Below, one piece after another: positions 2,715 to 51,075 of a stretch of DNA of 64,000 nt. The translations under genes were made by a program, and so were the position numbers. Source of the stretch: Parcubacteria group bacterium (GTDB taxonomy: Bacteria > Patescibacteriota > Minisyncoccia > 2-02-FULL-40-12). Position 1 is the first letter of the stretch; every line of letters starts with the position of its first letter. The notes beneath the pieces are model-generated. The model searched no databases. It saw only the letters and a program-made list of their open reading frames with translations, and was not told the origin of the DNA. Where the stretch lies: contig JACPLU010000003.1 of NCBI GenBank assembly GCA_016186395.1, positions 76,289-140,288 on the forward strand, written 5' to 3'.

Positions 2715-4352
<1,638 letters not shown>

Positions 4353-4486
4353 GTCTTAAATCTTGAAACATAAACTATAAATCATTTAAGTCCCGACAAA
4401 ATGTCGGGACTTAAATTTTTAATAACCAATTTAATTCAATTTAATTGAAAAAATAGATAAAAAAAGCTAGAATAATAAAGTTTTAA

Positions 4487-4572
4487 GGAAGGGTGCCTGA
4501 GCGGTCTAAAGGAACGGCTTGGAAAGCCGTGCCCCTTTTGGGGGCCCGTGGGTTCGAATCCCACCCCTTCCG
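4487..4572 (+). tRNA. tRNA-Ser (anticodon GGA), type II with long variable arm
   Basis: Acceptor GGAAGGG/CCCTTCC, anticodon stem ACGGC/GCCGT with loop TTGGAAA, variable arm GCCCCTTTTGGGGGC, T arm GTGGG-TTCGAAT-CCCAC, discriminator G. CCA is not encoded. Confidence 0.85.
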
Positions 4573-4655: not shown

Positions 4656-4889
4656 ATGGGATTTTCCAGAAGAAAATTGAATCCCACTCTTTACGGCTGG
4701 GTTCAACAAGTTATGAATTTAATATTTATTTTCAGTATTTTAATCAGTATATTTTTTCTAGGTTTAGTATTGATCGGCTTACCTGCGCAGATCGTAAAAA
4801 ACTATAGAGAGAAACGATCTAGTCAGCCTTTACTAACTATTTTAATTGCTTTGGGATTTTATGCGTCTCAAATCATTTTTTCTATATAA
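4656..4889 (+). CDS. hypothetical small membrane protein
   Basis: 77-aa ORF with two hydrophobic helices. Confidence 0.35.
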   Translation: MGFSRRKLNPTLYGWVQQVMNLIFIFSILISIFFLGLVLIGLPAQIVKNYREKRSSQPLLTILIALGFYASQIIFSI

Positions 4890-5017
4890 CACAAACGTAT
4901 TTTCCTCTAATTTCTTTTGTTGTGGGTATTCTGATGTGGGGAACAACTTTAGTACAGTTTTTGCTCTACCGTAATAACTTTTGATTTTAAAACCCATTTA
5001 TATTAAAGTTAAGTTAA

Positions 5018-5818: not shown

Positions 5819-6511
5819 ATGTCAGAAATACAGTGGGCTAACATTATGCCCAGTTACGATGATATGCTTGCGGCTGGAATGCACTATGGCCGCAAAAAGA
5901 CTGTATTCCATCCAAAGATGGAGCGTTTTGTGTATGCGTTGCGTGAGTCAATCCATATTATAGATTTATTAAAAACCGAGGAAAGATTAAAAGAAGCATG
6001 CGAAGCTCTTAAATCATTTAAAGATTCCAGCAAATTAATTCTTTGGGTAGCTTCGACAAAGCAATCAGAAGTTAAAATAGAGGAAATAGCAAAAGAATTT
6101 GCTTTGCCTTATGTTTTAAATCGTTGGCTTGGCGGAACTCTTACTAATTTTAAGACAATAAGAAGCAGGGTCAATTACTTTGAACAGATAGAGGAAAAGT
6201 TAAAGAAAGAACAAAGCAGTCCACAAATGATTAAAAAGGAAAGGGTTAAACTGGAGAAACAGTATCAAGATATGAAAGAAAAATTTGATGGTTTGCGAAG
6301 CCTTAATAGAGTTCCTGAAGCAATATTTATAACCTCATTAAAAGAGGGTGTCTCTGCGGCTAAAGAAGCTAAAAGATTAGGCGTTAAGACTTTTGCTATT
6401 GTAAACACCGAAAGTGACCCAACGTCCGTTGATTATCCGATTCCTGCTAACGATAATGCAAAAGGTTCGGTTGAGCTTATTTTAGATACGATTCGAAAAG
6501 CACTCATATAA
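5819..6511 (+). CDS. rpsB: 30S ribosomal protein S2
   Basis: LAAGMHYGRKKTVFHPKMERFVY...; S2 family, followed by tsf. Confidence 0.92.
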   Translation: MSEIQWANIMPSYDDMLAAGMHYGRKKTVFHPKMERFVYALRESIHIIDLLKTEERLKEACEALKSFKDSSKLILWVASTKQSEVKIEEIAKEFALPYVLNRWLGGTLTNFKTIRSRVNYFEQIEEKLKKEQSSPQMIKKERVKLEKQYQDMKEKFDGLRSLNRVPEAIFITSLKEGVSAAKEAKRLGVKTFAIVNTESDPTSVDYPIPANDNAKGSVELILDTIRKALI

Positions 6512-6514
6512 CCA

Positions 6515-6591
6515 ATGCAAATATACGAATTGATACTAATGATACGAATCTTATTAGTATAATTAGTATGCATTAGTATATTGGTATCGCG
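6515..6591. repeat. palindromic ~78-bp intergenic element, family A copy 1
   Basis: AATATACGAATTGATACTAATGATACGAAT...ATTAGTATAATTAGTATGCATTAGTATATTGGTATCGCG. The left half is approximately the reverse complement of the right half. It ends 1 nt before the tsf TTG start. Confidence 0.8.
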
Positions 6592-7170
6592 TTGCTTGAT
6601 TTAATTAAAAAACTAAGAGAAATAACTGGTGTTTCTATTGCTGAAATTAAAAAAGCCTTAGAAGATGCTAATCAAGATGAGCAGAAAGCCAAAGAACTTT
6701 TGCGTGCAAGGGGATCAACAAAAGCTGAAAAAAGATTTACTCGAGAAACAAAAGCAGGTGTGGTTGCTTCTTATGTTCACTCAAACTATAAAGTGGGAGT
6801 ACTTGTAGAACTGTTGTGTGAAACAGATTTTGTTGCAAGGAGTGACAAGTTTAAAGAATTAGCTCACGAAATAGCTTTACAAATTGCTTCAATGAATCCT
6901 GAATTTTTATCTTCAGAAGAAATACCAAAAGAAATAGCGGATCATGAAAAGTCTATTTATCGCGAAGAATTAATTAAAAGTGGGAAGCCTATGCAGATTA
7001 TAGATCAAATAATTGAAGGCCGATTTAAGAAACATTGTGAAGAAATTTGTTTATTAGACCAAAAATACGTTAAAGATCAAGATTTAACCGTCAGAGAATT
7101 AGTTAATCAATTTGTTGGTCAAATTGGAGAAAATATAAAGATAGGCAGGTTTGTCAGATTCGAGATATAA
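6592..7170 (+). CDS. tsf: elongation factor Ts
   Basis: TTG start, LIKKLREITGVSIAEIKKALEDANQDEQKAKELLRARG (UBA-like N-terminus). It forms the classic rpsB-tsf pair. Confidence 0.92.
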   Translation: MLDLIKKLREITGVSIAEIKKALEDANQDEQKAKELLRARGSTKAEKRFTRETKAGVVASYVHSNYKVGVLVELLCETDFVARSDKFKELAHEIALQIASMNPEFLSSEEIPKEIADHEKSIYREELIKSGKPMQIIDQIIEGRFKKHCEEICLLDQKYVKDQDLTVRELVNQFVGQIGENIKIGRFVRFEI

Positions 7171-7762
7171 GAATATGTTTATAATATTTCCACTCATTTT
7201 GATTCTTGGATCAATTGTCGCCATATTTGCGATAGTTTGGAGAAAACGTATCTATTTACGAAAGCTCGATGCTTTAGAATTTGAGAATGGAATAAGTTTT
7301 TGGGTTTCTATGTATCCAGAATTGAATGAGGTTTTTAACAAAGTTCAGCTGTCTAAATATAAGGACCATTTGTTGACCGAGTTAGAAAAGGCTCTTCGCA
7401 GATTAAGAATTGTTTCATTAAAGATTGAAAATAAAGTAAGTCATTGGCTTGAAAGAATGCCGAAGGTTCTAGAATCAACTGCAGTTGAGACAAATACAGG
7501 CAATGGTACCACAAAGGAAACAACTTTGGTTAATCTGGTTGTTAACGGAGATGATTGGAAAAAACAAGAACAAGAATTTGTAATGGAGATTGCTAAGTCT
7601 CCAAAAAATGCTCAGCTTTACAGAAAACTCGGGGCTTTGTATATGAAACAAAAATTATGGGAAGATGCCTTGGAGTCTTTAAAGACTGCAGTCAATCTTG
7701 ACCCAGAGGATCTTGAATCTAAGGCAAGATTAGAAAAAGTTGTCCAAAAAGTTTCTCTATAA
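7151..7762 (+). CDS. membrane-anchored TPR-like protein
   Basis: N-terminal TM followed by C-terminal TPR-like helices (YRKLGALYMKQKLWEDALESLKTAVNLDPED). Confidence 0.45.
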   Translation: MSDSRYKNMFIIFPLILILGSIVAIFAIVWRKRIYLRKLDALEFENGISFWVSMYPELNEVFNKVQLSKYKDHLLTELEKALRRLRIVSLKIENKVSHWLERMPKVLESTAVETNTGNGTTKETTLVNLVVNGDDWKKQEQEFVMEIAKSPKNAQLYRKLGALYMKQKLWEDALESLKTAVNLDPEDLESKARLEKVVQKVSL

Positions 7763-20399: not shown

Positions 20400-20613
20400 A
20401 ATACTAGGGTTTTCTTATTGTTGTGTCAATGTTTGACATATTTTAAGCTTTTGATATATTTATGAAATTAGTGCCGAAGACGGCGAGTTGCCCTAAAAGC
20501 ATAAATCTCGTTTAGGTCGAAAATCAATCAAAAGATTGATTTGGGTTTATTATGGTTGACGGCTTATTAGGCCGTCGTTTTATTAGCAAATCTGCAGGTA
20601 TGAGGGTGATCAT
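20400..20613 (+). promoter_or_regulatory. candidate ribosomal L10 leader (autoregulatory 5' UTR)
   Basis: Hairpins GCCG-AAGA-CGGC and AATCAATC-AAAAG-ATTGATTT, then GACGGC-TTATTAG-GCCGTC followed by GTTTT directly before rplJ, which is attenuator-like. Confidence 0.35.
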
Positions 20614-21186
20614 TTGTATCATTCGAATGCATTTGTAGATTGGCATTATATTTTGGCAAAGTCAAAACAAAGGAAACAAGAAGAATTAAGCGTTTTTTCT
20701 AAGAAATTAAAAGACGCAAAAATGGTTTTATTTACATCTTTTGCTGAACAGTCCAAGAAGGGGATTAATGTGGCAAATATGAGAAAGCTAAAAAGGGGAC
20801 TGCGAAACTTAGATTCAGAGTATGTGGTTATTAAAAAAACTCTGGCCAAAAAAGCATTTGATGATGTTACAAAGGATATCCAGATAGATACTAAAAAACT
20901 TTCAGGTTCGGTTGGTTTTATTTTGGGTTTTGGCGATCAAATAGCGCCGACTCAATTTATATATAAATTTTCAAGAGAAAACGAAGCATTGAAAATTTTG
21001 GGTGGTCTTTTAGACACTAAGATACTTTCAGGCAAAGAGGTTATTGAACTTGCTAAATTACCGGGTAGAGAAGTTATTTTAGCTCAACTAGCCTGTACAA
21101 TTAAAGCACCGTTACAGGGTTTGCATAATGTATTACAAGCCAATCTAAAGAATCTTGTTGTGGTTTTGGGTCAAATTAGAAAATAA
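20614..21186 (+). CDS. rplJ: 50S ribosomal protein L10; true start probably downstream of the annotated ATG
   Basis: L10 family similarity from ~residue 15. Followed by rplL. Confidence 0.8.
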   Translation: MYHSNAFVDWHYILAKSKQRKQEELSVFSKKLKDAKMVLFTSFAEQSKKGINVANMRKLKRGLRNLDSEYVVIKKTLAKKAFDDVTKDIQIDTKKLSGSVGFILGFGDQIAPTQFIYKFSRENEALKILGGLLDTKILSGKEVIELAKLPGREVILAQLACTIKAPLQGLHNVLQANLKNLVVVLGQIRK

Positions 21187-37507: not shown

Positions 37508-37942
37508 CTACTTTTTTTGATTTAAATTTTTGACATTAGCTTTTAGGAACGCCTGGATATGATTTAAAATTGGTTCTTTTTTATGCGGTCTGCTTCCAGC
37601 GATATGCTTGGCGAATCTATAAAGTCTATCATTGCTAATATAAATCCATGACCCGTTCTTATACAGAAAGTATAGTAAACACATGATAGCAATTCTTTTA
37701 TTTCCATTTTGAAATGGGTGGTTTTTTATTAAAAGATAAAATAAAACACTCCCTTTGCCAATAAGACCTCTATAGAAATCTGTTTTATCAAAACTTGCAA
37801 AAGGGACGGCAAGACAACTTTCAAGTATATTAGGGAATCTTGAACCAAAATTGGGAATAGGTTCATTCCATGTCATTAACTTTTCTGCTAAACGGAAGGC
37901 TGTGTATTCTACCTCGGCAATTGTTAGTTGTTTTGGTCTCAT
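37508..37942 (-). CDS. Doc/Fic-family toxin
   Basis: HPFQNGNKR matches the Doc-type Fic motif HxFx(D/N)GNKR. Confidence 0.75.
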   Translation of the reverse strand: MRPKQLTIAEVEYTAFRLAEKLMTWNEPIPNFGSRFPNILESCLAVPFASFDKTDFYRGLIGKGSVLFYLLIKNHPFQNGNKRIAIMCLLYFLYKNGSWIYISNDRLYRFAKHIAGSRPHKKEPILNHIQAFLKANVKNLNQKK

Positions 37943-38193
37943 TCCTTTCCAAGTAATTTAAAAACTTCACCATAGTCTGCAATGGCTTTATTGAGGGCTT
38001 TTTCAATATTATCTTTTTTTTCTTGACCAATTGATTTTCCCAAAGCTTCTAATAGATTTTCGTGGCTGACTATATAGTTTCTTCCAACCTTCTCGGCTTT
38101 TAGTTTCCCTTTTTTGATACGGTTGAATACCCCCACTCTGCTTATATGTAATATATGTGCTACTTCAGTTGTAGAATAGTATTTTTTTGTCAT
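37939..38193 (-). CDS. HTH (excisionase/MerR-like) DNA-binding protein, putative antitoxin/regulator of the Doc gene
   Basis: TTEVAHILHISRVGVFNRIKKGKL helix-turn-helix. Its stop overlaps the Doc start by 4 nt. Confidence 0.6.
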   Translation of the reverse strand: MTKKYYSTTEVAHILHISRVGVFNRIKKGKLKAEKVGRNYIVSHENLLEALGKSIGQEKKDNIEKALNKAIADYGEVFKLLGKE

Positions 38194-38225
38194 ATTCGTA
38201 TGTTAACATATGTTAACATACGAAT
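38194..38225. promoter_or_regulatory. 32-bp perfect palindrome (putative operator) abutting the HTH gene start
   Basis: ATTCGTATGTTAACATATGTTAACATACGAAT is its own reverse complement. It lies immediately 5' of the ATG at 38193. Confidence 0.6.
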
Positions 38226-38264
38226 AAAGTCCATTTTCTATAGTGACACAGGGCTTTCTGTTTT

Positions 38265-38526
38265 TATTATTTCTTGTAGAATACCCCGCGGTTTGCCCCG
38301 TCACCAGACCCAGCACAGCAATGCCAGAATGTTTTGGGTTTAAGTGCACTTCAGTCCGTAGAGTACACTTACTTTAGTAAGAACCGTTCTAATAAAGCAT
38401 TGGTACAGAAAACCAGTGCTGGGCTCGGTGCGGGGCTTGCCACGGAGATGAATGTAAGCCCGAAGCGAAGCCAAGTCAGACTTGGCGAAGCGGAGGAAAT
38501 AACATAAATCCAGCAATTTTTGAAAT
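38265..38526. repeat. hairpin repeat family B copy 2, with a long internal stem insertion
   Basis: Shares the 5' end TATTATTTCTTGTAGAATACCCCGCGG and the 3' end GATGAATGTAAGCCCGAAGCGAAG...GCGGAGGAAATAACATAAATCCAGCAATTTTTGAAA with copy 3. Confidence 0.65.
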
Positions 38527-38683
38527 ATTTAAAAAATACTAATTCTTTTCAAAAATTGCGTAGGGTACTCTTTTTAAGAGTACCTCACAGCTTGCTGTGA
38601 GGATTTCTATTAATTTGTTTTGATATGCTGATTTTCTTCTCTTTCAAACATGCAGGGTGGAGTAAATAAAAAGCCCTTGTGGG

Positions 38684-38890
38684 CTAAAAAAATCTTATTT
38701 TAGAACGAAGAGTATCCCAAGCTTTACTTTTAGACATTCTAAGACGTTTCCTTTCTTTTTCTAACTCATCGCGGTTTTCTGCCAAAAGCACTAGAAGATT
38801 CCAGGCTCTCCACTTAGGCATATTGTGGGTTTTTCTAATTTTTTCTAAGCTGGGATATCCAGTTTTTATTAAAACCTTTTTCCTGGGCAT
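38684..38890 (-). CDS. hypothetical small basic protein
   Basis: ORF only. Confidence 0.3.
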   Translation of the reverse strand: MPRKKVLIKTGYPSLEKIRKTHNMPKWRAWNLLVLLAENRDELEKERKRLRMSKSKAWDTLRSKIRFF

Positions 38891-39106
38891 TTTATTCTCC
38901 TAGTAAGTTTATGATGTGCTGTTAATAAAATTATTCCTATGGCAAATTAATGTCAAACCCTGCCGTTGATCCCGCTCTTAAGTTTAAGGGCTGGGTTGAG
39001 CTCAAGGGTGGAGGCAAACAATATAAAATATGATTGACAGTTGGAGTACTCTATGCTAAGTTGTTTTTACTTAGGTTTTGTCATTTAACAAAAAGGGGGA
39101 ATAAAA

Positions 39107-39232
39107 ATGTGGATTAAGATTAATTGGAGTACTGTATTCTTGGATTTTTTTGGAGTACTCGCCTGTATTTTTATTCTATTATCATCTGTTTTTTCCCACA
39201 GAATATGCAGTCGAACTGGGAAGAGTAAATAA
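39107..39232 (+). CDS. candidate 41-aa hydrophobic peptide; not in the ORF track
   Basis: SD AAGGGGG 8 nt upstream. MWIKINWSTVFLDFFGVLACIFILLSSVFSHRICSRTGKSK. The stop lies 3 nt before the next start. Confidence 0.3.
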   Translation: MWIKINWSTVFLDFFGVLACIFILLSSVFSHRICSRTGKSK

Positions 39233-39235
39233 AAT

Positions 39236-39652
39236 ATGCGAGTTTTTCTAGTTCGACATGGAGATGCTAGGGGCAGTTTAACAGAAAATGGAAGAATGCA
39301 AATTTCAGCAACAGCTAACTTTTTGGAGTCATTAAAACTAGATCCTTTGAAAACTGTATTACTTACATCTGAACGTCAAATGGCAGTTGAGACCGCGGAA
39401 ATCATTCGAGAAAGGTTTGGGTTTAATAATTGTTTACAAAAATCTTGGTTAACGTGTGGAACAGATGAACATACTAAATTTTGTTTGGAAAATTTCATCA
39501 GAGATAATCCTCAATTTGAGACGGTTATCTGTGTGAGTCATGAACCAGAACTTGAAGAAGTTCTTCGAGCGCTTGGATTTTATAAGACTGTTCCCAAGGG
39601 TTCTGTACATGAGATTCAGCTTAGTACCGGAACCGCATCGCGTCTCTATTAA
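39236..39652 (+). CDS. sixA: histidine phosphatase superfamily (SixA-like phosphohistidine phosphatase)
   Basis: MRVFLVRHGDA (RHG motif) and a downstream SHEPE segment. Confidence 0.65.
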   Translation: MRVFLVRHGDARGSLTENGRMQISATANFLESLKLDPLKTVLLTSERQMAVETAEIIRERFGFNNCLQKSWLTCGTDEHTKFCLENFIRDNPQFETVICVSHEPELEEVLRALGFYKTVPKGSVHEIQLSTGTASRLY

Positions 39653-39778
39653 TCACGCTGGTCATTTCGGCCAGTTTTTTTGTTTACCAAAAGTTTTTGT
39701 ATCTTTACAAATTGTTTGATATCTATTACATTTTTTTCACTATTTTTACTATTGGCAAAGAGTACAAAGTGATGTATT

Positions 39779-40093
39779 TTGCCAATAAAGATCTTTTCCA
39801 ATACGGAGCTAAAGATGGAAAAAATAGTTTGTAATCGAGCCAAACATCCGGGTCATCCGCTAGAAAATATCGAGGCTAGATACAGAACTGTAACAAGATA
39901 TGGTAAAGAGCAACTTTGCGAAAAATGCGCTACTCCGATGTTGATAGCAAGGCAGATGCTCATAAACGATTTTAACGACGGGGCATTGTTGTCGATCGTA
40001 GATTTGAGTAATAATCTGGATATTTTAAAAGAGCTGGTTAAAAATAATGCTAAAAATGGCCTATTACACCAGAGCACTGATGAAGATATTTGA
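39779..40093 (+). CDS. hypothetical protein
   Basis: ORF only. Confidence 0.35.
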   Translation: MPIKIFSNTELKMEKIVCNRAKHPGHPLENIEARYRTVTRYGKEQLCEKCATPMLIARQMLINDFNDGALLSIVDLSNNLDILKELVKNNAKNGLLHQSTDEDI

Positions 40094-40158
40094 TGCTGTT
40101 TTAATTGAAAGTACGCGCCTATTGCGCGTTTTTTAAATTTTAGGTAGTATTTCCAGTA

Positions 40159-40476
40159 ATGCATTTTGCTATAATTCTAACTGGTGGCAAACAATATTTA
40201 GTAAAAGAAGGGGATTTACTTAAAGTTGAGAAATTAAACCCAAAAGAGGGTGAGGATTTAGTATTTGATAAAGTTCTTCTTTTTTCAGATGGTGAAGCCG
40301 TTAAATTAGGCAAACCATATTTGGAAGGGGCATCTGTTAGGGCCAGTATTTTAGAGCAGGGAAAGGATAAAAAGAAGATTGTTTTTAGGTTTAAGTCAAA
40401 GACTCGTTATAAAAAGAAAAAAGGCCATAGACAGCCTTTCACAAAAGTTAAGATTGAGAAAATAATCTTTGGCTAA
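40159..40476 (+). CDS. rplU: 50S ribosomal protein L21
   Basis: [23 protein letters not shown]...; L21 family. Confidence 0.9.
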
Positions 40477-40480
40477 TTTT

Positions 40481-40616
40481 TATTATTTCTTGCAGAATAC
40501 CCCGCGGCCTGTCTGCCGATAGGCAGGCTTGCCGTGGGGATGAATGCAAGCCCGAAGCAAAGTCGAGCTTAGCTCGACGAAGCGGAGGAAATAACATAAA
40601 TCCAGCAATTTTTGAA
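40481..40616. repeat. hairpin repeat family B copy 3
   Basis: TATTATTTCTTGCAGAATACCCCGCGGCC..., GATGAATGCAAGCCCGAAGC, AGTCGAGCTTAGCTCGAC, GCGGAGGAAATAACATAAATCCAGCAATTTTTGAAA. Confidence 0.65.
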
Positions 40617-40647
40617 AGGTTTTAACTCGGATATATCAACCCGTTGA

Positions 40648-40806
40648 GCTTGCTGAATAATACTCTTTCTCTTTCTTCGCAAACCCCAGCGTGGTTTGCT
40701 CAGGGGTTGAGTCTTTCGCTCTTACCCGGCTCTTTCAAAAGAAAGAGCCGGGTAAACCATGCCCGCTACAGGCTCAAAACCCGTTCAAGAGTATTATTTC
40801 AGCAAG
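40648..40806. repeat. MITE-like element family E copy 1 with ~19-bp terminal inverted repeats
   Basis: Begins CTTGCTGAATAATACTCTT and ends AAGAGTATTATTTCAGCAAG. Internal hairpins CGCAAACCCC/GGTTTGC and ACCCGGCTCTTTC-AAAA-GAAAGAGCCGGGT. Confidence 0.7.
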
Positions 40807-40817
40807 AGTTTATTATT

Positions 40818-41429
40818 TTAGTTTCTTCTTTCCAACGCATCTTTCAACGTTATTTCGTCAACATATTCCAAAGATGTACCAAAGGATATGCCTCTACCTA
40901 AACGAGTAATTTGAATTTGATCTTGAAGTTTTTTTAATTTGTCCTCGATGTATATGGCAGTGGTGTTGCCAAAAGGCGTGGGGCTTAGTGCCAGAATGAT
41001 TTCCGGTTTTTTATTCTTTTGACTTAGAATATTTTTAATTCTTTGGTTAAGTTGACTGATTGTTAATCTCTCGGCATTTATACCGTCTATAGGATTTATT
41101 GCTCCTCCCAATACGTGATAGTGGCCCTGGTAATGTCCGGTTCTCTCAACTGATTCCAGGTCGCTAATCTTTTCTACAACCATAATTTTAGAAGCGTCTC
41201 TTTTGGGATTTAAGCATATATAACAGCGGTCAGTTTCCCCAACATAAAAACATTGGGTGCAAAGTTTAATTTCTTGTTTCAGGTTGGCAATTAATCTTGC
41301 AAATTCAACAAGTTCCGTTTCGTCGCGGTTTAAAAGCGATAAAACAAAACGGGTCGCTTGACGTGGCCCCACCCCGGGTAAAATCGTAAAAAGTTTTTTT
41401 AGCTTTGTGAAAGATTTCATACGATGCAA
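40818..41429 (-). CDS. recR: recombination protein RecR
   Basis: HhH N-terminus, C4 zinc finger (CTQCFYVGETDRCYIC) and Toprim domain. Confidence 0.9.
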   Translation of the reverse strand: MHRMKSFTKLKKLFTILPGVGPRQATRFVLSLLNRDETELVEFARLIANLKQEIKLCTQCFYVGETDRCYICLNPKRDASKIMVVEKISDLESVERTGHYQGHYHVLGGAINPIDGINAERLTISQLNQRIKNILSQKNKKPEIILALSPTPFGNTTAIYIEDKLKKLQDQIQITRLGRGISFGTSLEYVDEITLKDALERRN

Positions 41430-41872
41430 ATATACGAATTGATACTAATTATACGAATTTAGTTTTTACATCAGTATCAATTTTTACTATTCTTAGCGGT
41501 TTGAGATAGCGACTTCTAAAGTTTATTAATAACCCTAACTTTTTACCCAATGTTTGAAGATATCGCTGAGTTTGGTAGTAGTCTTCCTTTAGTATATATG
41601 TTTTAGCTTTTACTTCTAAAATTATTTTGTTATCTATTAAGAAATCTAATTTATTTCCTGTGTTTTGAATTGTGAACTCTCTCTTATAAGTTATAGACTG
41701 TTCTTTTAGTTCTTTTTCTATTTGATCGCAATATTGTTTTTCCCTATTAAATCTTCCTAATTTATTATGGATGTCAAAGCATATTCCTGTGATGACATAA
41801 GATAATTCTGGATAAATTATCTTATGTTTTTTATTTGTATGATTAGTATGCATTAGTATATTAGTATCGCCT
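41423..41872. mobile_element. family A element copy 3, split by a ~375-bp insert carrying a GxxExxY gene
   Basis: Left half GATGCAAATATACGAATTGATACTAATTATACGAATTT (41423-41460). Right half TGTATGATTAGTATGCATTAGTATATTAGTATCGCC (41836-41872). Both are in the same orientation as copies 1 and 2, and the ORF lies between them. Confidence 0.6.
41449..41853 (-). CDS. GxxExxY-family (PD-(D/E)XK-like) small protein
   Basis: YPELSYVITGICFDIHNKLGRFNREKQY...IILEVKAK...LGLLINFR matches the GxxExxY family layout. The annotated N-terminus MHTNHTN is encoded by the repeat, so the real start is probably downstream. Confidence 0.65.
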   Translation of the reverse strand: MHTNHTNKKHKIIYPELSYVITGICFDIHNKLGRFNREKQYCDQIEKELKEQSITYKREFTIQNTGNKLDFLIDNKIILEVKAKTYILKEDYYQTQRYLQTLGKKLGLLINFRSRYLKPLRIVKIDTDVKTKFV

Positions 41873-43387: not shown

Positions 43388-43693
43388 ATGGAACATATAA
43401 GGGGACATAGTTCTCGCGATATAAGGGACGAAATGAATGATGAGGTCGATAGTTTAAGAGCAAAAATTCAAAGCCTAGAGGCAGAAAATGCAGAATTGAA
43501 AAAAGATAAAGAAAGATTGGATTTTATTGATAAATATAAGCTTCCAATAGAAAGAATATCTTTGGGGGTAAGAAGCTCATTTTGGAGAATATATTTTATC
43601 GATAGTTTTATTTACGAGTTTAATTTAAGAGAATGTATTGATTCGCAAATAAGAAAAGAGGTTAGTATTATTAAACCAGTTGAGGGTAAGTAG
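43388..43693 (+). CDS. hypothetical coiled-coil protein
   Basis: ORF with SD AAGGAGGGG. Confidence 0.4.
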   Translation: MEHIRGHSSRDIRDEMNDEVDSLRAKIQSLEAENAELKKDKERLDFIDKYKLPIERISLGVRSSFWRIYFIDSFIYEFNLRECIDSQIRKEVSIIKPVEGK

Positions 43694-43694
43694 T

Positions 43695-45143
43695 TTATTT
43701 TCTCACTAATGGTCCATAAGGAGTGTCGTCAATTTTGTAACCCTTTGTGAGTATTTGTTTTCGTAATTCGTCGGCTTCGGCGAATTTTTTTTCGTTTCTG
43801 GCGGTCTCGCGTAAATCAACTAAGTTTTGAATTTCATCTGGTAGGGGTATAGATTTTTCGGGGATAAAGCCAAAAATTCCATTTATTTCCTTAAGTAAAT
43901 CAAGCACTTGATTTGCGACTGTTTTACTTATTAACCCCGAATGAAGGGGAGCATTAAACTCTCTAATCAGATTGAATAATTCTGCAATTGCTATCGGGGC
44001 GTTAAAATCATCATCTAGAGCTTCAAAAATAGATTTTCTGTGTGTCTCAAAAAAATTGGTATAATCTGATTTTTTTTCTTCGTCTGCCTGACTGGTAGGC
44101 AGGTCTGCTTTGCCGTCGGCTTTTTCAAGATTTAAGACAAACTCTCTAAGGCGCATAACAGCGGCTTCGGCTTGATTCATTAAGTTGTCGTTGAAATCAA
44201 TCGGGGATCTATAATGGGTGCTTAAAACCATAAAACGTACTGCTTCTGGGCTTTGGTCTTTAAGCAAGTCCCTTATGGTTATGAAGTTACCTAGAGATTT
44301 AGACATTTTTTGTCCATTTAGTGTTAAAAAACCGGTATGCATCCAAAGTTTAACAAAAGGTTTTTTGCCTGATAAAGATTCCATTTGAGCAATCTCGGCC
44401 TCATGATGGGGAAAGATTAAATCACGTGATCCGCCGTGGATTTCGTATTGGGGTGAGTCAAACTCCTTTTCAGTAATAGCCGTATCTTCTATGTGCCAGC
44501 CAGGACGTCCTGCACCAAGTTCGCTTTGCCAAGACGGTTCGCTTGGTTTTGCCGTTCCTTCGGAGCGAGCCTCGTCCTCTGGGCGGGAAAACTTCCATAA
44601 AGCAAAATCACCTTTGTTTCTTTTAAGCGTGCTTTCGTCTATTCGGCTTACCGCATCCTCGGCATCTTCTACTGTTCTACCGGAAAGCTTTCCATAATCT
44701 GGAAATCTTTTAAGATCAAAATAGTAACCCTCATCCGGTATTAAATAGGCAATATTTTTTTCTTTTAGTCTTTTGACCTGATCTACAATTTGTTTAATAT
44801 ATTCTGTTGCCGGAGCATATTTAGTAACACTGGTTATGCCAAGATTTTCCATATCCTCCATATATTTTTCTTGAAATTCTTTGGCTAAACCAAGCGGGTC
44901 TTTGTTTTCTGATTTTGCCCGATCAATGATTTTGTCATCAATATCGGTGATATTTTGAAGATAAAAAACTTCATAGCCTAGGTAACGTAAATATTTGGCA
45001 ATCATATCAAAGGCAATATAAGTTCTGGCATGGCCGATATGGGAATAATCATAAACAGTTGGTCCGCAGACAAACATCCGAATTTTTTTATCGAGAAAGT
45101 TTAATTCTTCTTTTTGTTTTGTAAGAGTATTAAATATTTTCAA
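43695..45143 (-). CDS. cysS: cysteinyl-tRNA synthetase; start trimmed to TTG giving (M)KIFNTLTKQKEE
   Basis: HIGH (HIGHARTY) and KMSKS motifs. The N-terminus aligns with canonical MLKIFNTLTRQKEE. The ORF-track extension to 45302 is probably not translated. Confidence 0.9.
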   Translation of the reverse strand: MKIFNTLTKQKEELNFLDKKIRMFVCGPTVYDYSHIGHARTYIAFDMIAKYLRYLGYEVFYLQNITDIDDKIIDRAKSENKDPLGLAKEFQEKYMEDMENLGITSVTKYAPATEYIKQIVDQVKRLKEKNIAYLIPDEGYYFDLKRFPDYGKLSGRTVEDAEDAVSRIDESTLKRNKGDFALWKFSRPEDEARSEGTAKPSEPSWQSELGAGRPGWHIEDTAITEKEFDSPQYEIHGGSRDLIFPHHEAEIAQMESLSGKKPFVKLWMHTGFLTLNGQKMSKSLGNFITIRDLLKDQSPEAVRFMVLSTHYRSPIDFNDNLMNQAEAAVMRLREFVLNLEKADGKADLPTSQADEEKKSDYTNFFETHRKSIFEALDDDFNAPIAIAELFNLIREFNAPLHSGLISKTVANQVLDLLKEINGIFGFIPEKSIPLPDEIQNLVDLRETARNEKKFAEADELRKQILTKGYKIDDTPYGPLVRK

Positions 45144-45185
45144 CCTAAAAGAATTGTAGCAAATACGGGGTTTATTTGGAAATTT
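45099..45185. repeat. 87-bp direct repeat copy 1 (functional cysS promoter plus first 13 codons)
   Basis: Identical to 46329-46415. On the minus strand it contains TTCCAA-N17-TACAAT followed by the TTG start of cysS. Confidence 0.9.
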
Positions 45186-45195
45186 CTGTAGATAG

Positions 45196-45223
45196 TTGAC
45201 AGAATCTATCCATCTGTTATAAT
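45196..45223 (+). promoter_or_regulatory. near-consensus sigma70 promoter
   Basis: TTGACA-N16-TATAAT. Confidence 0.6.
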
Positions 45224-45229
45224 ATAAGA

Positions 45230-45366
45230 GTACTCGGAATTCAGAGTGCAAGGGGGTGGAGCTCACGGGCTCCACCAAACCCGCATTGTGGCGGAAAGCC
45301 ACAGTGTGATTCCAGCCCGGCGTAGACCGGTGACTGGGGGGTGGTGCTCCGGCGCCACCCTTTTTC
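45230..45366 (+). ncRNA. candidate ~135-nt small RNA (promoter-to-terminator unit U1)
   Basis: Starts about 7 nt after the -10 box. Hairpins GGTGGAGC-TCACG-GGCTCCACC and GTGGC-GGAAA-GCCAC. 3' module CCAGCCCGGCGTAGACCGGTGACTGGGGGG. Terminator GGTGGTGC-TCC-GGCGCCACC followed by CTTTTTCC. Confidence 0.45.
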
Positions 45367-45444
45367 CTTTATATATTGACATAAGTTGAGGAGTAGTTTA
45401 TATTAATTAACATTGGGGTACCTTAAATTAAAAGGAGGGAATAA

Positions 45445-45816
45445 ATGAGCCAATGTTCTGGTACAGTTAAACTTGCTAAATTGGTCAATAGACGAATGAG
45501 GGGTAAGACGCTAAAAGAAGTGGCTAATGCTGCTGGAATATCGCCAACATCATTATGTCTTATTAGGTCTGGTTGTCGTGGAATTTCTATCAAGATGGCA
45601 AAAAAACTGGCGAAAGGTCTAAACGAGGATCCAGCCAATTTAAGTCGAGAGATTGAGGAATTAGTTCTGGCTGGGAAAGGTGAACGTAACAAGTTAAAAT
45701 TTTGTTACGTTAGGCAATCACAGGTGGAATTTACAATTCGGGTTCCTCTGAACCTCGCAAAAAGAGTTACAGATTTTGTTATGGAAATTGAGAAAGAAGT
45801 CAACAAGGAGGTGTAG
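45445..45816 (+). CDS. HTH_XRE-family transcriptional regulator
   Basis: LKEVANAAGISPTSLCLIRSGCRGISIKMAKKLAKGL; SD AGGAGG. Local GC is clearly higher than the surroundings. Confidence 0.6.
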   Translation: MSQCSGTVKLAKLVNRRMRGKTLKEVANAAGISPTSLCLIRSGCRGISIKMAKKLAKGLNEDPANLSREIEELVLAGKGERNKLKFCYVRQSQVEFTIRVPLNLAKRVTDFVMEIEKEVNKEV

Positions 45817-45819
45817 ACA

Positions 45820-46263
45820 ATGCAAGTAGAACGAATTACGTTTCGACGAGATCATCCACGCCCGGCGTTCCAATCGGAACATGAGTATCCTCATAACGAG
45901 GAGGAAACCCAGATGCTAACGGAATGGAGCATTGGGTGGATAGATGATCTCATCGATGAATCAGTACGATTCATCGATAGTGAACTTAATCTTCTTAACT
46001 TAAATCCCCAGCAGAGGGAAAATGTGAGGGAGAAGATTAAGATCGGGGTAATTTCTGTGTGGGCAGAGTGGCACCTTGATATGGAAGATGAGGTGCCGAT
46101 CGACCAAGAGGTGATTGCCCAGTATCTTAAGCACAAGTTTAATATCGATGTGCCGGTTTGTAACGAGTGTAACTTCAACTTGTTAACTGAGGTTGAAGCA
46201 ACCGCACTCGGTTTGGAAGAAGTTGTCTTAGAGCCACTAGAATCGGACTTGTCTGGTTCTTAG
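45820..46263 (+). CDS. hypothetical acidic protein encoded by the cassette
   Basis: SD GGAGG. Followed by a strong terminator (GCGGGCGGGGGG...CCCCGCCCG followed by TTTTT) at 46264-46318. Confidence 0.5.
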   Translation: MQVERITFRRDHPRPAFQSEHEYPHNEEETQMLTEWSIGWIDDLIDESVRFIDSELNLLNLNPQQRENVREKIKIGVISVWAEWHLDMEDEVPIDQEVIAQYLKHKFNIDVPVCNECNFNLLTEVEATALGLEEVVLEPLESDLSGS

Positions 46264-46328
46264 GTACTTTCTTCAGCGGGCGGGGGGAATGTCATAATTT
46301 GTCCCCGCCCGTTTTTCTTATTCGGAAT

Positions 46329-46415
46329 GTTTAATTCTTCTTTTTGTTTTGTAAGAGTATTAAATATTTTCAACCTAAAAGAATTGTAGCAAATACGGGG
46401 TTTATTTGGAAATTT
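46329..46415. repeat. 87-bp direct repeat copy 2 (orphan cysS 5' stub)
   Basis: Identical to 45099-45185, with no downstream cysS body. Confidence 0.9.
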
Positions 46416-46425
46416 AGCAAGGCTA

Positions 46426-46453
46426 TTGACAAAGTATGTCAGTTTGTTATACT
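46426..46453 (+). promoter_or_regulatory. sigma70-like promoter, homologous to the one at 45196
   Basis: TTGACA-N16-TATACT. Confidence 0.55.
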
Positions 46454-46459
46454 TATAAA

Positions 46460-46595
46460 TAGTCTCGGGTCAGGTCAAAAACCGAGTTTTAAAAAGGGAC
46501 GAAGCTTAAGCTTGACCAAGCAATAGTCCCAACCATCATCCAGCCCGGCGTAGACCGGTGTCTGGGGGCCAGTGCTCTTGCGCTGGCCTTTTTCG
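46460..46595 (+). ncRNA. candidate ~135-nt small RNA (unit U3, paralog of U1)
   Basis: CTCGGGTCAGGTCAAAAACCGAG hairpin and AAGCTTAAGCTT palindrome. Same 3' module CCAGCCCGGCGTAGACCGGTGTCTGGGGG. Terminator GCCAGTGC-TCTT-GCGCTGGC followed by CTTTTTCG. Confidence 0.45.
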
Positions 46596-46669
46596 TTTAA
46601 ATAGCTTTTACTGTTGATGATTGGATATTTATATTTATGCTATACTCTAAATTATTGAAACTTCGTATT

Positions 46670-46805
46670 TTATTAATGCTTTTGAGACAATAGGAGGCAC
46701 GGTTTGCTTGGATCTCGATCCGTCCTGGGCGGAGAGGGAAAATCGTGCCGACTCTTAATAAGTGTGCCGCAGGAGCACACGAATGTGTCTAAAAAGCATT
46801 AATAA
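46670..46805 (+). repeat. structured element family F copy 1 (5' of a membrane-protein gene)
   Basis: Outer stem TTATTAATGCTTTTGAGACA/TGTCTAAAAAGCATTAATAA. Inner stems GGCACGGTTT/AAATCGTGCC and GTGTGC-CGCAGGA-GCACAC. Confidence 0.65.
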
Positions 46806-46828
46806 AATATTTAATCCAGAGCCTACTT

Positions 46829-47647
46829 ATGAATAAAAGAGTTATTTTGCCGATAATAGTTTTGGTAACGAGTTTAATTTTTTGGGGCGTGGTTCAAAGA
46901 AGTATTCAAAGCCCCAATTTAAAAGAAGTGATCTTTTGGGTTAAGGTCGCTTTATCGTTCGGACTTTTTAGCGGAAGTTTGGCCTTTGGATTACTTTTAT
47001 CCAATTCTAAATATTGGGCGGCATTGAACATCTTTATTCCAATTCTAGTTTTTTGGTTTTTAACTAATTTAGGTCTGATTACTTTAGTTCTTGGCTTGCT
47101 CGTATTTTTAATACAGTTTTCCTACTACACAACTATTAAGAGTGAACAAGAGCAAAGGCTTAAAGTTTCAATCAAGAAATTTTTAGAAAAAGGCATTTAT
47201 GGTTTTATTGCCGGGATAATAATTCTCGTAACTTTATTTTATTATTTCACTCCCTCTGTCCAGGAAAAAAGTCGTCAAATAACCATACCAAAAAGTCTAG
47301 AGACTTTTGTTCAGGAATTTACTACTCAAACCTTACTTCGCAACGCATCTCCCGAAGTTAGGGCTCAAATTCAAACTCCCGAATTTCAAACTCAACTGGG
47401 ACAAGAAGTGCAAAGAACTACAAAAGAACTTTTACGTCAGCTTGATTCATGGGCCGGCCCTTATAAAAAGTTTTTCCCCTTGGTTTTAAGTATTGGTTTT
47501 TATTTAACTTTGACTGCATTTACGTTTTTGTGGAATTGGCTTACGTTGCTTTTTGCATCGCTTTTTCTGTTTATATTCAAGCAGTTAGGATTAGTTAAAA
47601 TTAATTCAGTCCAAAAAGAAGCAGAAGAATTAGAATTAGTTAATTAG
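46829..47647 (+). CDS. hypothetical polytopic membrane protein
   Basis: Several TM helices; no family assigned. Confidence 0.45.
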   Translation: MNKRVILPIIVLVTSLIFWGVVQRSIQSPNLKEVIFWVKVALSFGLFSGSLAFGLLLSNSKYWAALNIFIPILVFWFLTNLGLITLVLGLLVFLIQFSYYTTIKSEQEQRLKVSIKKFLEKGIYGFIAGIIILVTLFYYFTPSVQEKSRQITIPKSLETFVQEFTTQTLLRNASPEVRAQIQTPEFQTQLGQEVQRTTKELLRQLDSWAGPYKKFFPLVLSIGFYLTLTAFTFLWNWLTLLFASLFLFIFKQLGLVKINSVQKEAEELELVN

Positions 47648-47658
47648 TCTTTAGAAAG

Positions 47659-47784
47659 TTATTAATGCTTTTGAGACAATAGGAGGCACGATTTGCTTGG
47701 TCCCGAGTTTATCGAGGGAAATCGTGCCGACTCTTAATGAGTGTGCCGCAGGAGCACACGAATGTGTCTCAAAAGCATTAATAA
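47659..47784 (+). repeat. structured element family F copy 2
   Basis: Same outer and inner stems as copy 1 with a variable central segment. It directly precedes the next membrane-protein gene. Confidence 0.65.
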
Positions 47785-47791
47785 CTAGATT

Positions 47792-48385
47792 TTGGTGAAT
47801 AAGATATCAGAGATTTTATCAAATTTAATACTTAAATTAGCTGACTTCTCACAAAATTTTGGCAACCTTAATTCTGGTGCCAAACTAAATTGGGATATTT
47901 TTGTGGTTTTATTTATATTTTTGGCCTTTTTTCTTTATGGTATAACTGCCGGTAGAAATAAATTAACCCTTTTTTTCTTTAGTATTTATGTAAGCTTTCT
48001 TTTGGTGGAAATTTTTCCATACTGGTCGTTAGTTGAGAAACAGGCGGCAATTAACAAGTCATATATTTCTTATTCAATAGGATTTGTTATTTTAACTATT
48101 TTAATATTTTTGTTATTTTCTCATTCTGGAATTAAAACATTTTTTGCTTTGTCTTCAATTGAAAAAGGATCATGGTTTCAGATTTTTATATTTAGTATTA
48201 TCGGAGTCGGTTTGTTGACTAGTTTTTTGTTGTCGTTTTTTTCTCAATCCGAGCTTGAGATTTTGTCTCCGCGGATTATTAGATTTTTTGGTGTAGATAC
48301 GCGCTTTGGTTGGCTGGCAGCTTCTTTAATTGTTATGTCATTTGTACATAGACACCATCGACACAGAAGAGAAGGTAGTATATAA
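47792..48385 (+). CDS. hypothetical membrane protein (CvpA-like?) with His/Arg-rich tail
   Basis: Four TM helices; HRHHRHRR tail. Confidence 0.4.
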   Translation: MVNKISEILSNLILKLADFSQNFGNLNSGAKLNWDIFVVLFIFLAFFLYGITAGRNKLTLFFFSIYVSFLLVEIFPYWSLVEKQAAINKSYISYSIGFVILTILIFLLFSHSGIKTFFALSSIEKGSWFQIFIFSIIGVGLLTSFLLSFFSQSELEILSPRIIRFFGVDTRFGWLAASLIVMSFVHRHHRHRREGSI

Positions 48386-49914: not shown

Positions 49915-51075
49915 ATGGGCCTTTCAGTATTGACACAAATCCGACTAAGTAGTATAATAGAGGATATGGAAAATAATATAGAAAAACAAATTAATTTGGC
50001 TGGAAACGTTGATACTCAAGGAGTTAGTACAAAAGTTGATATCAAACCGGTAATTGATCCGGAAACTAAGAAAAAACTTGAAGAATTGGAGGAAAAAAGA
50101 CAGAAAAGAATAAAAACCCTAAGAAACACTGTTTGGGGTGTTGCTGCTATTCTCGGAATAATCATTTTGGCTGTCATCATTTTTTCTTCAGGTAATGACA
50201 AAATAGAAACAACTAACAAAGTCCAGACCGATAAAGAAGGAGCTTTTGCTTTTGAGTCAATCAAGGGATTTTTTATTAGTAATCCAAGTTCTACTACTTC
50301 TAATTCAAATATTGTTAGTCAGCAAAGCAATACCGTCTCTAACCAAAGTCAGACACAAAGTAATCAGTCTACAACTCAAACAACAAGAACATATAGTAGA
50401 GAGGAAATACTGGTAGCTAAGGTTTTGGATAGTCTTTACGGATTTGGTCCATCTACTGGAACTACTACAAGTGTAAATAGTTCAACTTCAACTGTCAGCA
50501 ATTCCGGCCAGGTAGCTGGCGCACAAATTATCCAGAACGGTTTTGGTTTTGTGCAGGGAGCAAGTGGAAACGGGTTAAGAAATTCGTTTTTGGTAAAAGT
50601 GAAGGGAGATGCGCGAGTTTATGAAATTATTCAGGGTCAAAAACACTTAATTCCAAATAATGTTATTTTTGAGGATTATGGTTTTGATTCAAGGACTATT
50701 CGTTTAGTTACTCAAAGAGAGTTGAATCTTTGGCCGAGAGCAAAGATTTTACATCAAATAGGAGATACAAAAATTTGGTATTTGACTGAAGTCGGTTACG
50801 TGAGACTGGTTCCAAATAGAGAGGTATTTATATCTTATGGAGATAGAATTGAGGATGTTATTCAGGTTAGTCCTTTGGAATTAGCTTTTTACCCAAGGGT
50901 TAAATATATTCATTTGGAAGATGGGGAGGACAATAGAATTTGGCTGATTGAGGGCGCAACAAAATATCCTATTAACCCATTAGCCTTTTTACGATTAAGA
51001 ATTAAATTTATTGAGATTGCTCCAGTTAATCAAAAGGAATTCGACTTTTATAAAGTTGGCCCGGAGATAAATTAG
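49915..51075 (+). CDS. hypothetical membrane-anchored protein with Ser/Thr-rich linker
   Basis: One TM; low-complexity STQ-rich region. Confidence 0.45.
   Translation: MGLSVLTQIRLSSIIEDMENNIEKQINLAGNVDTQGVSTKVDIKPVIDPETKKKLEELEEKRQKRIKTLRNTVWGVAAILGIIILAVIIFSSGNDKIETTNKVQTDKEGAFAFESIKGFFISNPSSTTSNSNIVSQQSNTVSNQSQTQSNQSTTQTTRTYSREEILVAKVLDSLYGFGPSTGTTTSVNSSTSTVSNSGQVAGAQIIQNGFGFVQGASGNGLRNSFLVKVKGDARVYEIIQGQKHLIPNNVIFEDYGFDSRTIRLVTQRELNLWPRAKILHQIGDTKIWYLTEVGYVRLVPNREVFISYGDRIEDVIQVSPLELAFYPRVKYIHLEDGEDNRIWLIEGATKYPINPLAFLRLRIKFIEIAPVNQKEFDFYKVGPEIN

Follow-up and report, generated by a model that had tools for sequence, protein, structure and literature searches.

Among the integrated elements of bacterial chromosomes, cis-mobilizable elements (CIMEs) keep both attachment sites, attL and attR, and carry no integration or transfer genes (PMC5704250), and elements of the SXT/R391 group target the 5' end of prfC (PMC4344509). 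A survey of groundwater plasmids linked few of them to bacteria of the candidate phyla radiation (CPR), a group in which plasmids have rarely been studied (PMC12023590). Here we analysed a stretch of 64,000 nt (the window) from a 239,152-bp contig of the metagenome-assembled genome (MAG) GCA_016186395.1, which belongs to a Parcubacteria group bacterium of the CPR, and describe an insert of 1,143 bp at the 5' end of its cysteine--tRNA ligase gene, cysS. The insert lies between two perfect copies of an 87-bp direct repeat (R) and carries two protein-coding genes of foreign composition together with a candidate small RNA, U1, whose diverged homologue, U3, stands beyond the second repeat. We give about an even chance to the explanation that a single crossover in R inserted a circular DNA of 1,230 bp, either by host recombination or by a recombinase acting in trans.

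The locus resembles a CIME in that flanking repeats are retained at both ends, the cargo is foreign, and recombinase and transfer genes are missing. It differs in that the insert is just 1.14 kb long and shows no sign of decay from a larger integrative and conjugative or integrative and mobilizable element, the repeat is 87 bp long and perfect, no partner element is known to share its site, and the host is a Parcubacterium. With SXT/R391 it shares the targeting of the 5' end of a translation-related housekeeping gene, which is kept functional by the 5' end that the repeat supplies, whereas SXT is ~100 kb long with its own Int and Xis and the unit here is 1.23 kb long and has no integrase. The insert is about 100 times smaller than CIMEs and SXT/R391. 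As in a site-specific integrative element, the insert is bounded by repeats and cysS is intact, but the element encodes no integrase of its own: no gene for an integrase, transposase, recombinase or Rep protein was detected in the cassette or in the 20 open reading frames (ORFs) of at least 110 amino acids across 30.8-60.8 kb of the window. Over this range, the lack of a recombinase that had been noted in a first reading of the letters alone (the sequence-only reading) is therefore real. In Campbell-type integration, a small circular DNA enters by a single crossover through a homologous segment. The locus has the corresponding order, gene-R-insert-R-flank, the shared segment is present in two identical copies, and the insert together with one R makes up the circle; unlike in that model, the donor circle here is putative and has no recognisable replication function. 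The locus is an unusually small case of a known kind, a repeat-flanked integrated islet at a gene end, to which is added a pair of RNAs outside known families.

The two copies of R, R1 and R2 (Table 1), are identical over 87 bp with a period of 1,230 bp, and the exact identity cannot be extended on either side. Weaker similarity continues beyond R for 16 nt on the left and 36 nt on the right, giving a 139-nt family with 86% identity. On the minus strand, R contains the promoter-like site TTTCCA-N18-TACAAT with a TG extension, followed by the TTG start at 45143 and 15 cysS codons (MKIFNTLTKQKEELN). The sequence-only reading had recognised the perfect direct repeat and had placed a cysS promoter, the TTG start and cysS codons within it; the repeat and the start codon stand, whereas the codons number 15 instead of 13 and the promoter-like site has the hexamers and spacing given here instead of TTCCAA-N17-TACAAT. 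In an alignment with relatives, the TTG falls at the ATG with which their cysS begins, and their cysS 5' ends match the coding part of R at 75-87% identity. The cysS gene reads intact through R1 with the N-terminus expected from these relatives. In R2, the same frame leaves the cysS codons, enters unrelated codons and stops, so that the second copy is an orphan 5' stub, as had been proposed. Transcription from the promoter copy in R2 would run antisense into the second gene of the insert. Just past the repeat on the cysS side (46313-46328 versus 45083-45098), the stub and cysS share 13 of 21 nt (IPNKKN versus FLDKKI), which may reflect leftover homology with a cysS 5' end that has diverged, or chance in A+T-rich sequence.

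The two genes of the insert form an operon. Both are preceded by strong Shine-Dalgarno sequences, AAGGAGG and AGGAGGTG, and a palindrome at 45403-45410, TTAATTAA, overlaps the -10 element of the operon promoter and may be an operator. The first gene encodes a helix-turn-helix (HTH) protein that belongs to Pfam HTH_3 (E = 8e-6; 26.2 bits against a cut-off of 23; residues 16-63), with weak matches to a lambda-repressor-like protein in the PDB and to repressors in PHROGs. The second encodes the acidic protein ORF147. An HTH regulator and a 147-residue acidic ORF with Shine-Dalgarno sequences and a strong terminator had been called beforehand, and the HTH_3 match, the isoelectric point of 4.3, the ribosome-binding sites and the stem with its T-run all agree with that call.

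Compositionally, the two cassette genes are foreign. The G+C content of the insert is 43.8%, against 35.9% for the window. At third codon positions, the G+C content of ORF147 is 0.486, which is the highest of 53 ORFs and lies 6.2 standard deviations above the 52 background ORFs (0.278 +/- 0.034; z = +6.2); the corresponding value for the HTH gene is 0.331 (z = +1.6). When scored against the codon usage of the window, the HTH gene and ORF147 each fit worse than all 52 background ORFs. The comparison of codon usage that had been suggested for these genes thus returned the foreign signal.

A word-indexed search of 5.8 billion clusters recovered no homologue of the HTH protein or of ORF147. An exhaustive phmmer search found 12 distant relatives of ORF147 with 29-43% identity, and the family shares the motifs HPRPF, W.IG.VDDLVDDS..FI.EEL, S.WA and FL..KFG. 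As to its function, Pfam, PHROGs, PADLOC and NCBIfam gave just a sub-threshold match to DUF7479 / DVU_1557, and for this member alone. In an AlphaFold model with a predicted local distance difference test score (pLDDT) of 80, ORF147 consists of two long helices and shorter helices, and the model has no structural neighbour in PDB or BFVD. The loci of two ORF147 homologues were recovered, neither of them in the context of a mobile element or an HTH gene. One of them, on a CPR-like groundwater contig (OBEQ012645402.1, L017), is a stand-alone gene at 5947-6462 with its own strong promoter, a G+C content of ~0.50-0.53 against ~0.35 in its flanks, no HTH partner and no U-like RNA; judged by its composition, it also looks horizontally acquired. 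On the same contig, three copies of a different element of ~140 nt bounded by inverted repeats (4870-5010, 6480-6630 and 7340-7460) flank the ORF147-family gene.

Each copy of R is followed by a unit that runs from a promoter to a terminator. U1 and U3 can be aligned over their full length: their 5' ends resemble each other, the middle has diverged, and the 3' module differs at a single bulged base. Each unit is closed by an intrinsic terminator, a 10-bp helix with a T-run behind it. The 29-nt module CCAGCCCGGCGTAGACCGGTGNCTGGGGG occurs in the window just at 45312 and 46540, where none would be expected by chance; its predicted hairpin has a stem of 9 bp, interrupted by two 1-nt bulges, and the loop CGUAGA. 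The predicted fold of U1 has an energy of -81 kcal/mol (z = -6.7), and that of U3 has a z of -3.1. In the terminator helix, the three base-pair differences between U1 and U3 are all compensatory and none is disruptive, although a comparison of two sequences is weak evidence. The G+C content is 0.56 for U1 and 0.48 for U3. Across both strands of the window (128 kb), six sites match the sigma-70 consensus at 11 or more of 12 positions, and three of these are the promoters of U1, the HTH gene and U3. The alignment, the promoters with 12 and 11 of 12 consensus positions and the terminators uphold the view that U1 and U3 are homologous but diverged promoter-to-terminator units with a shared module, and on these features they are good candidates for expressed structured RNAs. 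The other three near-consensus promoters lie at 2261 before groES-groEL, at 20433 before a leader of ~180 nt of the ORF at 20614, and at 49930. The last sits just within the called ORF 49915-51075, which suggests that the start of this ORF is miscalled.

U1 and U3 match no known RNA family. We ran Rfam 15 at gathering thresholds over the full window, and searched inputs of 3 kb, 148 nt and 376 nt with permissive filters. No family was assigned to either unit at gathering thresholds, and the permissive runs gave just terminator-like matches of 4-15 bits against cut-offs of 36-88, the best of them (14-15 bits against 36-45) covering the terminator part alone. Signal recognition particle RNA, transfer-messenger RNA, 6S RNA, RNase P RNA, riboswitches, ribozymes and group II intron domains were each rejected because no Rfam match exceeded its threshold, in line with the sequence-only reading, which had recognised no Rfam-type family in the units by eye. 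Searches for relatives of the RNAs were likewise negative. In GTDB genomes, the sole match to a 21-mer of the module was a coding gene of Streptomyces; JGI metagenomes and IMG/VR contained no match to a 26-nt module pattern; when the loop was made degenerate, the pattern gave just chance matches in phage contigs of high G+C content; and a low-stringency BLAST search for RNA homologues returned nothing. A covariance model of the 3' hairpin and terminator, run over the window and seven loci, found U1 and U3 alone, and its match in the relative L021 (E = 0.21) was discarded because it falls inside a coding region. Duplex-energy scans for targets, which ignore intramolecular structure, were made over start regions and the whole window; they gave only matches driven by G+C content, the best being tRNA-Ser (z = -5.5), and no target in cysS or the cassette. 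Compared with trans-acting small RNAs that carry a 3' stem-loop and an intrinsic terminator, U1 and U3 are similar in their stand-alone promoters, length of ~137 nt, several hairpins, conserved ends and variable middle, and differ in having no Rfam match and no identified target or partner protein and in being known from one genome.

The conserved module could also be read as DNA, that is, as a recombination site of 28 nt at which a Xer-type tyrosine recombinase of the host inserted the element between two modules. Integrative mobile elements exploiting Xer (IMEXs) use the host XerCD at dif, are small and carry no recombinase, and the present insert is likewise small, recombinase-free and bounded by short sites with inverted arms. 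The module has the dif-like layout of arm, 6 nt and arm, with inverted arms of 9-11 nt (CCAGCCCGG-CGTAGA-CCGGTGNCTGG), and occurs exactly twice, as a direct repeat 1,228 bp apart. However, GC skew is positive over all 64 kb (0.04-0.26) and never switches, so that neither the origin nor the terminus lies in the window and the insert does not have the location of an IMEX at dif. In addition, the candidate site is part of a promoter-to-terminator RNA unit, where it immediately precedes a terminator helix with compensatory changes, and the perfect 87-bp repeat is left unexplained, being no part of the IMEX model. We regard insertion at a Xer site as highly improbable.

Table 1. Features of the cysS 5' end, the insert and its flank (positions in the window)
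Feature	Position	Strand	Description
cysS (cysteine--tRNA ligase)	43695..45143	-	482 aa; TTG start; intact; 100% identity to MBI2626904.1
R1, repeat copy 1	45099..45185	.	cysS codons 1-15 and 42 nt upstream with promoter-like site; 24% GC
U1 promoter	45196..45223	+	TTGACA-N16-TATAAT with extended -10 TG; 12/12 consensus
U1 candidate small RNA	45230..45366	+	~137 nt; 5' hairpin, two G+C-rich hairpins, shared 3' hairpin (45312-45337), terminator (45338-45361 and T-run)
HTH-ORF147 operon promoter	45376..45404	+	TTGACA-N17-TATATT; 11/12 consensus
XRE/lambda-repressor-type HTH protein	45445..45816	+	123 aa; pI 9.9, basic; MBI2626905.1
ORF147	45820..46263	+	147 aa; acidic, pI 4.3; helical; small uncharacterised family
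Orphan stub ORF	46260..46373	-	15 cysS codons and 22 unrelated codons, then stop; crosses ORF147 terminator (opposite strand)
Operon terminator	46277..46317	+	9-bp G+C stem (46277-46311), then T-run
R2, repeat copy 2	46329..46415	.	orphan cysS promoter and 5' stub
U3 promoter	46426..46453	+	TTGACA-N16-TATACT with extended -10 TG; 11/12 consensus
U3 candidate small RNA	46460..46595	+	~136 nt; shared 3' hairpin 46540-46565, terminator 46566-46589 and T-run

In the explanation that we favour, a chromosome with the order cysS-R-U3 would have undergone one reciprocal crossover within R with a 1,230-bp circle of the order R-U1-HTH-ORF147-terminator. This would have placed 1,143 bp of horizontally acquired DNA in the divergent promoter region between cysS and the chromosomal U3, the imported cargo being U1, the XRE-type HTH protein and the acidic helical protein, with their own promoters and terminators. 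The cysS promoter and 5' end would have been kept intact and an orphan R left on the far side. Since the unit has no recombinase, the crossover would have been carried out by host homologous recombination, for which 87 bp of identity and a recR gene in the window are available, or by a site-specific recombinase acting in trans. A single event of this kind accounts for the perfect identity of R with its sharp borders, the intact cysS, the stub, the foreign genes and the diverged second U beside the repeat, and the same repeats would permit loop-out or tandem amplification. U1 and U3 would be homologous, independently transcribed structured RNAs of ~137 nt, in which the near-invariant 3' stem-loop would most likely be a recognition handle and the diverged middle would confer specificity. 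Because of the geometry and the higher G+C content of U1, U3 would be native, whereas U1 would have been imported, as the version of a host RNA that the incoming element carried.

The same arrangement might have been built without a circle, if an old segmental duplication of the cysS 5' end and U had diverged, a foreign two-gene fragment had been inserted separately, and a recent gene conversion had made the copies of R equal again. The full-length homology of U1 and U3 with their strongly diverged middle, the weak similarity beyond R on both sides and the recombination gene nearby (recR) are consistent with such a history. It takes three events instead of one crossover, however, and the perfect identity stops sharply at both borders, U1 groups in G+C content with the foreign genes and not with U3, and relatives have no duplication at cysS; we consider it unlikely. 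A simple tandem segmental duplication was rejected, since the copies share just R (100%) and the diverged U, and no counterpart of HTH-ORF147 follows U3.

Contigs from independent assemblies of related samples bear on the putative circle. An exact-protein lookup of ORF147 retrieved four contigs, all shorter than 2 kb, from Logan assemblies of the run series SRR121133xx-121134xx. The two that could be read (L001 and L002) are 1,260 bp long each, that is, 1,230 bp plus a terminal direct overlap of 30 nt; one is a circular permutation of the other, and both match 45099-46328 of the window at 100% identity. Logan assemblies use k=31, and an overlap of 30 nt is a product of de Bruijn assembly at that k. 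In sister samples, the chromosome contigs reach into R by exactly 30 nt and end there, at window position 45128; all short-read contigs of this organism break at the repeat, and none crosses it. The closure of the 1,230-bp cycle fits a circle or a tandem array, and it fits the integrative-element explanation as well.

The cycle raises the possibility that the 1,230-bp unit exists for the most part as a free circular replicon in many copies, or as a tandem array, and recombines reversibly with the chromosome through R, the integrated copy being one of several states. L001 is an isolated, closed cycle with an arbitrary start point, and L002 continues from R into U1 unbroken at the R-to-U3 branch, even though the neighbouring chromosome is present in the same sample (L011). 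In Minia-type contig building, a lost branch implies that coverage of the cycle is above that of its flanks; this assembler behaviour suggests higher coverage of the cycle in the L002 sample. Furthermore, the strongly promoted, G+C-rich U1 with its G-run adjoins a stretch of 24% G+C, which, speculatively, would suit RNA-primed replication. On the other hand, the unit does not qualify as an autonomous plasmid, having no Rep gene or domain, no iterons and no recognisable origin; it shows no similarity to the plasmid and phage records of PLSDB and INPHARED; the coverage argument is indirect, as low depth can drop branches by chance; and the existence of a chromosomal homologue, U3, speaks against a replicon-specific function. 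We therefore hold a mainly free circle or array to be rather unlikely.

It is also conceivable that the integrated state is an artefact, the assembler having joined a separate circle that shares R into a chromosome whose true order is cysS-R-U3. The graph topology would be identical at any k below 87, and the cycle contigs do exist on their own. The default k list of MEGAHIT, however, reaches 141, which exceeds 87. He et al. (2021) assembled their reads with MEGAHIT at default settings, and the MAG probably belongs to that groundwater project, as the same run series also holds a sister Parcubacteria genome from it (JACPNK). If so, the integrated junctions of the MAG across R should rest on reads. 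The region contains no Ns, and the locus proteins have consecutive NCBI accessions, MBI2626904.1 (cysteine--tRNA ligase), MBI2626905.1 (HTH regulator) and MBI2626906.1 (hypothetical protein, HYW77_01565). An assembly artefact is distinctly unlikely in our estimation.

Several observations weigh against the single-crossover insertion of a circle. One integrated copy, a circle with an empty site and a tandem array all yield one and the same graph when an 87-bp repeat is assembled at k=31; because these three configurations cannot be told apart, the cycle alone proves nothing. An element of 1.2 kb without a recombinase or replication gene has no obvious means to persist or to move. The promoter call in R is uncertain because the -10 element ends 9 nt before the TTG, so that the leader would be ~2 nt or less and the mRNA almost leaderless, which is unusual. 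As to the RNAs, the conserved hairpin of U1 and U3 is invariant and therefore silent on RNA structure either way, and U1 and U3 were found in this one genome alone, which confines comparative support to the pair itself. Finally, the insertion that the sequence-only reading had proposed is upheld in part, namely as to the foreign insert, the duplication with intact cysS, the lack of a recombinase and the RNA pair outside known families, but no empty site was found.

The search for an empty site or a donor covered relatives and sequence collections. The closest CysS in databases is ~62% identical, and relatives whose CysS is ~60% identical share the gene order cysS-dnaB-recR-...-mur-PBP-mraW. 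Four loci from three relatives have different genes upstream of cysS, with no cassette, no R-U unit and no duplication at cysS. Lookups of the exact protein sequences of CysS, of the stub and of the R2-U3 ORF, made to find an empty site, gave nothing on record. A plasmid or phage origin was rejected, as blastn and tblastn searches of PLSDB and INPHARED gave no match, and nothing related to the element turned up in collections of metagenome, viral, plasmid and phage sequences. In the relative L021, a 570-nt region at 3967-4537, directly upstream of cysS, is G+C-rich, intergenic and apparently structured; its sequence is unrelated to U1 and U3.

The locus is embedded in core housekeeping genes, with mraZ, mraW, a penicillin-binding protein (PBP) gene, a Mur ligase gene, Fic, recR, a PDDEXK_3 nuclease gene, dnaB and cysS on one flank and efp, fmt, def, priA and gltX on the other. 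The PDDEXK_3 gene (41449-41853) lies between recR and dnaB and is missing there in relatives with a visible dnaB-recR (L018 and L020). A coiled-coil ORF of 101 amino acids (43388-43693) lies between dnaB and cysS; at the cysS-dnaB gap, three loci of relatives (L020, L021 and L022) have an unannotated gene of 171-174 amino acids, and L018 has none. The PDDEXK_3 gene, the coiled-coil ORF and the 171-174-residue genes look like small lineage-specific insertions into a conserved gene block. Two stretches of 1.2-1.3 kb each, 37942-39236 and 39652-40818, contain no ORFs of at least 110 amino acids and no Rfam matches at gathering thresholds, and the Fic/DOC gene (37508-37942) adjoins these ORF-poor stretches.

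Beyond U3, two elements of ~130-144 nt (46666-46809 and 47657-47786) are ~96% identical to each other, and both are closed by a near-perfect terminal inverted repeat of 20-24 bp (TTATTAATGCTTTTGAGACA ... TGTCTCAAAAGCATTAATAA). They end 8-24 nt upstream of membrane-protein ORFs (46829-47647 and 47792-48385) and fold as three-way junctions (z = -8.0 and -8.6) with no Rfam match, and short-read contigs break at them. These elements could be repeats resembling miniature inverted-repeat transposable elements (MITEs) or cis-regulatory leaders.

What the locus means depends on the state of the circle. If there is a single integrated copy only, it is an ordinary small genomic islet, the value of which is left in the RNA pair and the ORF147 family. 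Should a real, multicopy circle exist, one would have to ask how 1.2 kb of DNA with just a repressor-like protein, a small acidic protein and an RNA persists. In the boldest form, for which we see a low probability, a 1,230-bp CPR circle free of recombinase and Rep genes would shuttle between a free multicopy state and the chromosome by means of its 87-bp copy of the cysS promoter and 5' end, with its own allele of the small RNA serving its maintenance, for example in replication priming or immunity; if this were true, few self-maintaining mobile elements known from bacteria would be smaller. Little has been characterised of the mobile elements and regulatory RNAs in CPR/Patescibacteria, and the locus provides a concrete case, a very small recombinase-free insert at an essential gene that adds another, diverged version of a structured RNA candidate with a strong promoter.

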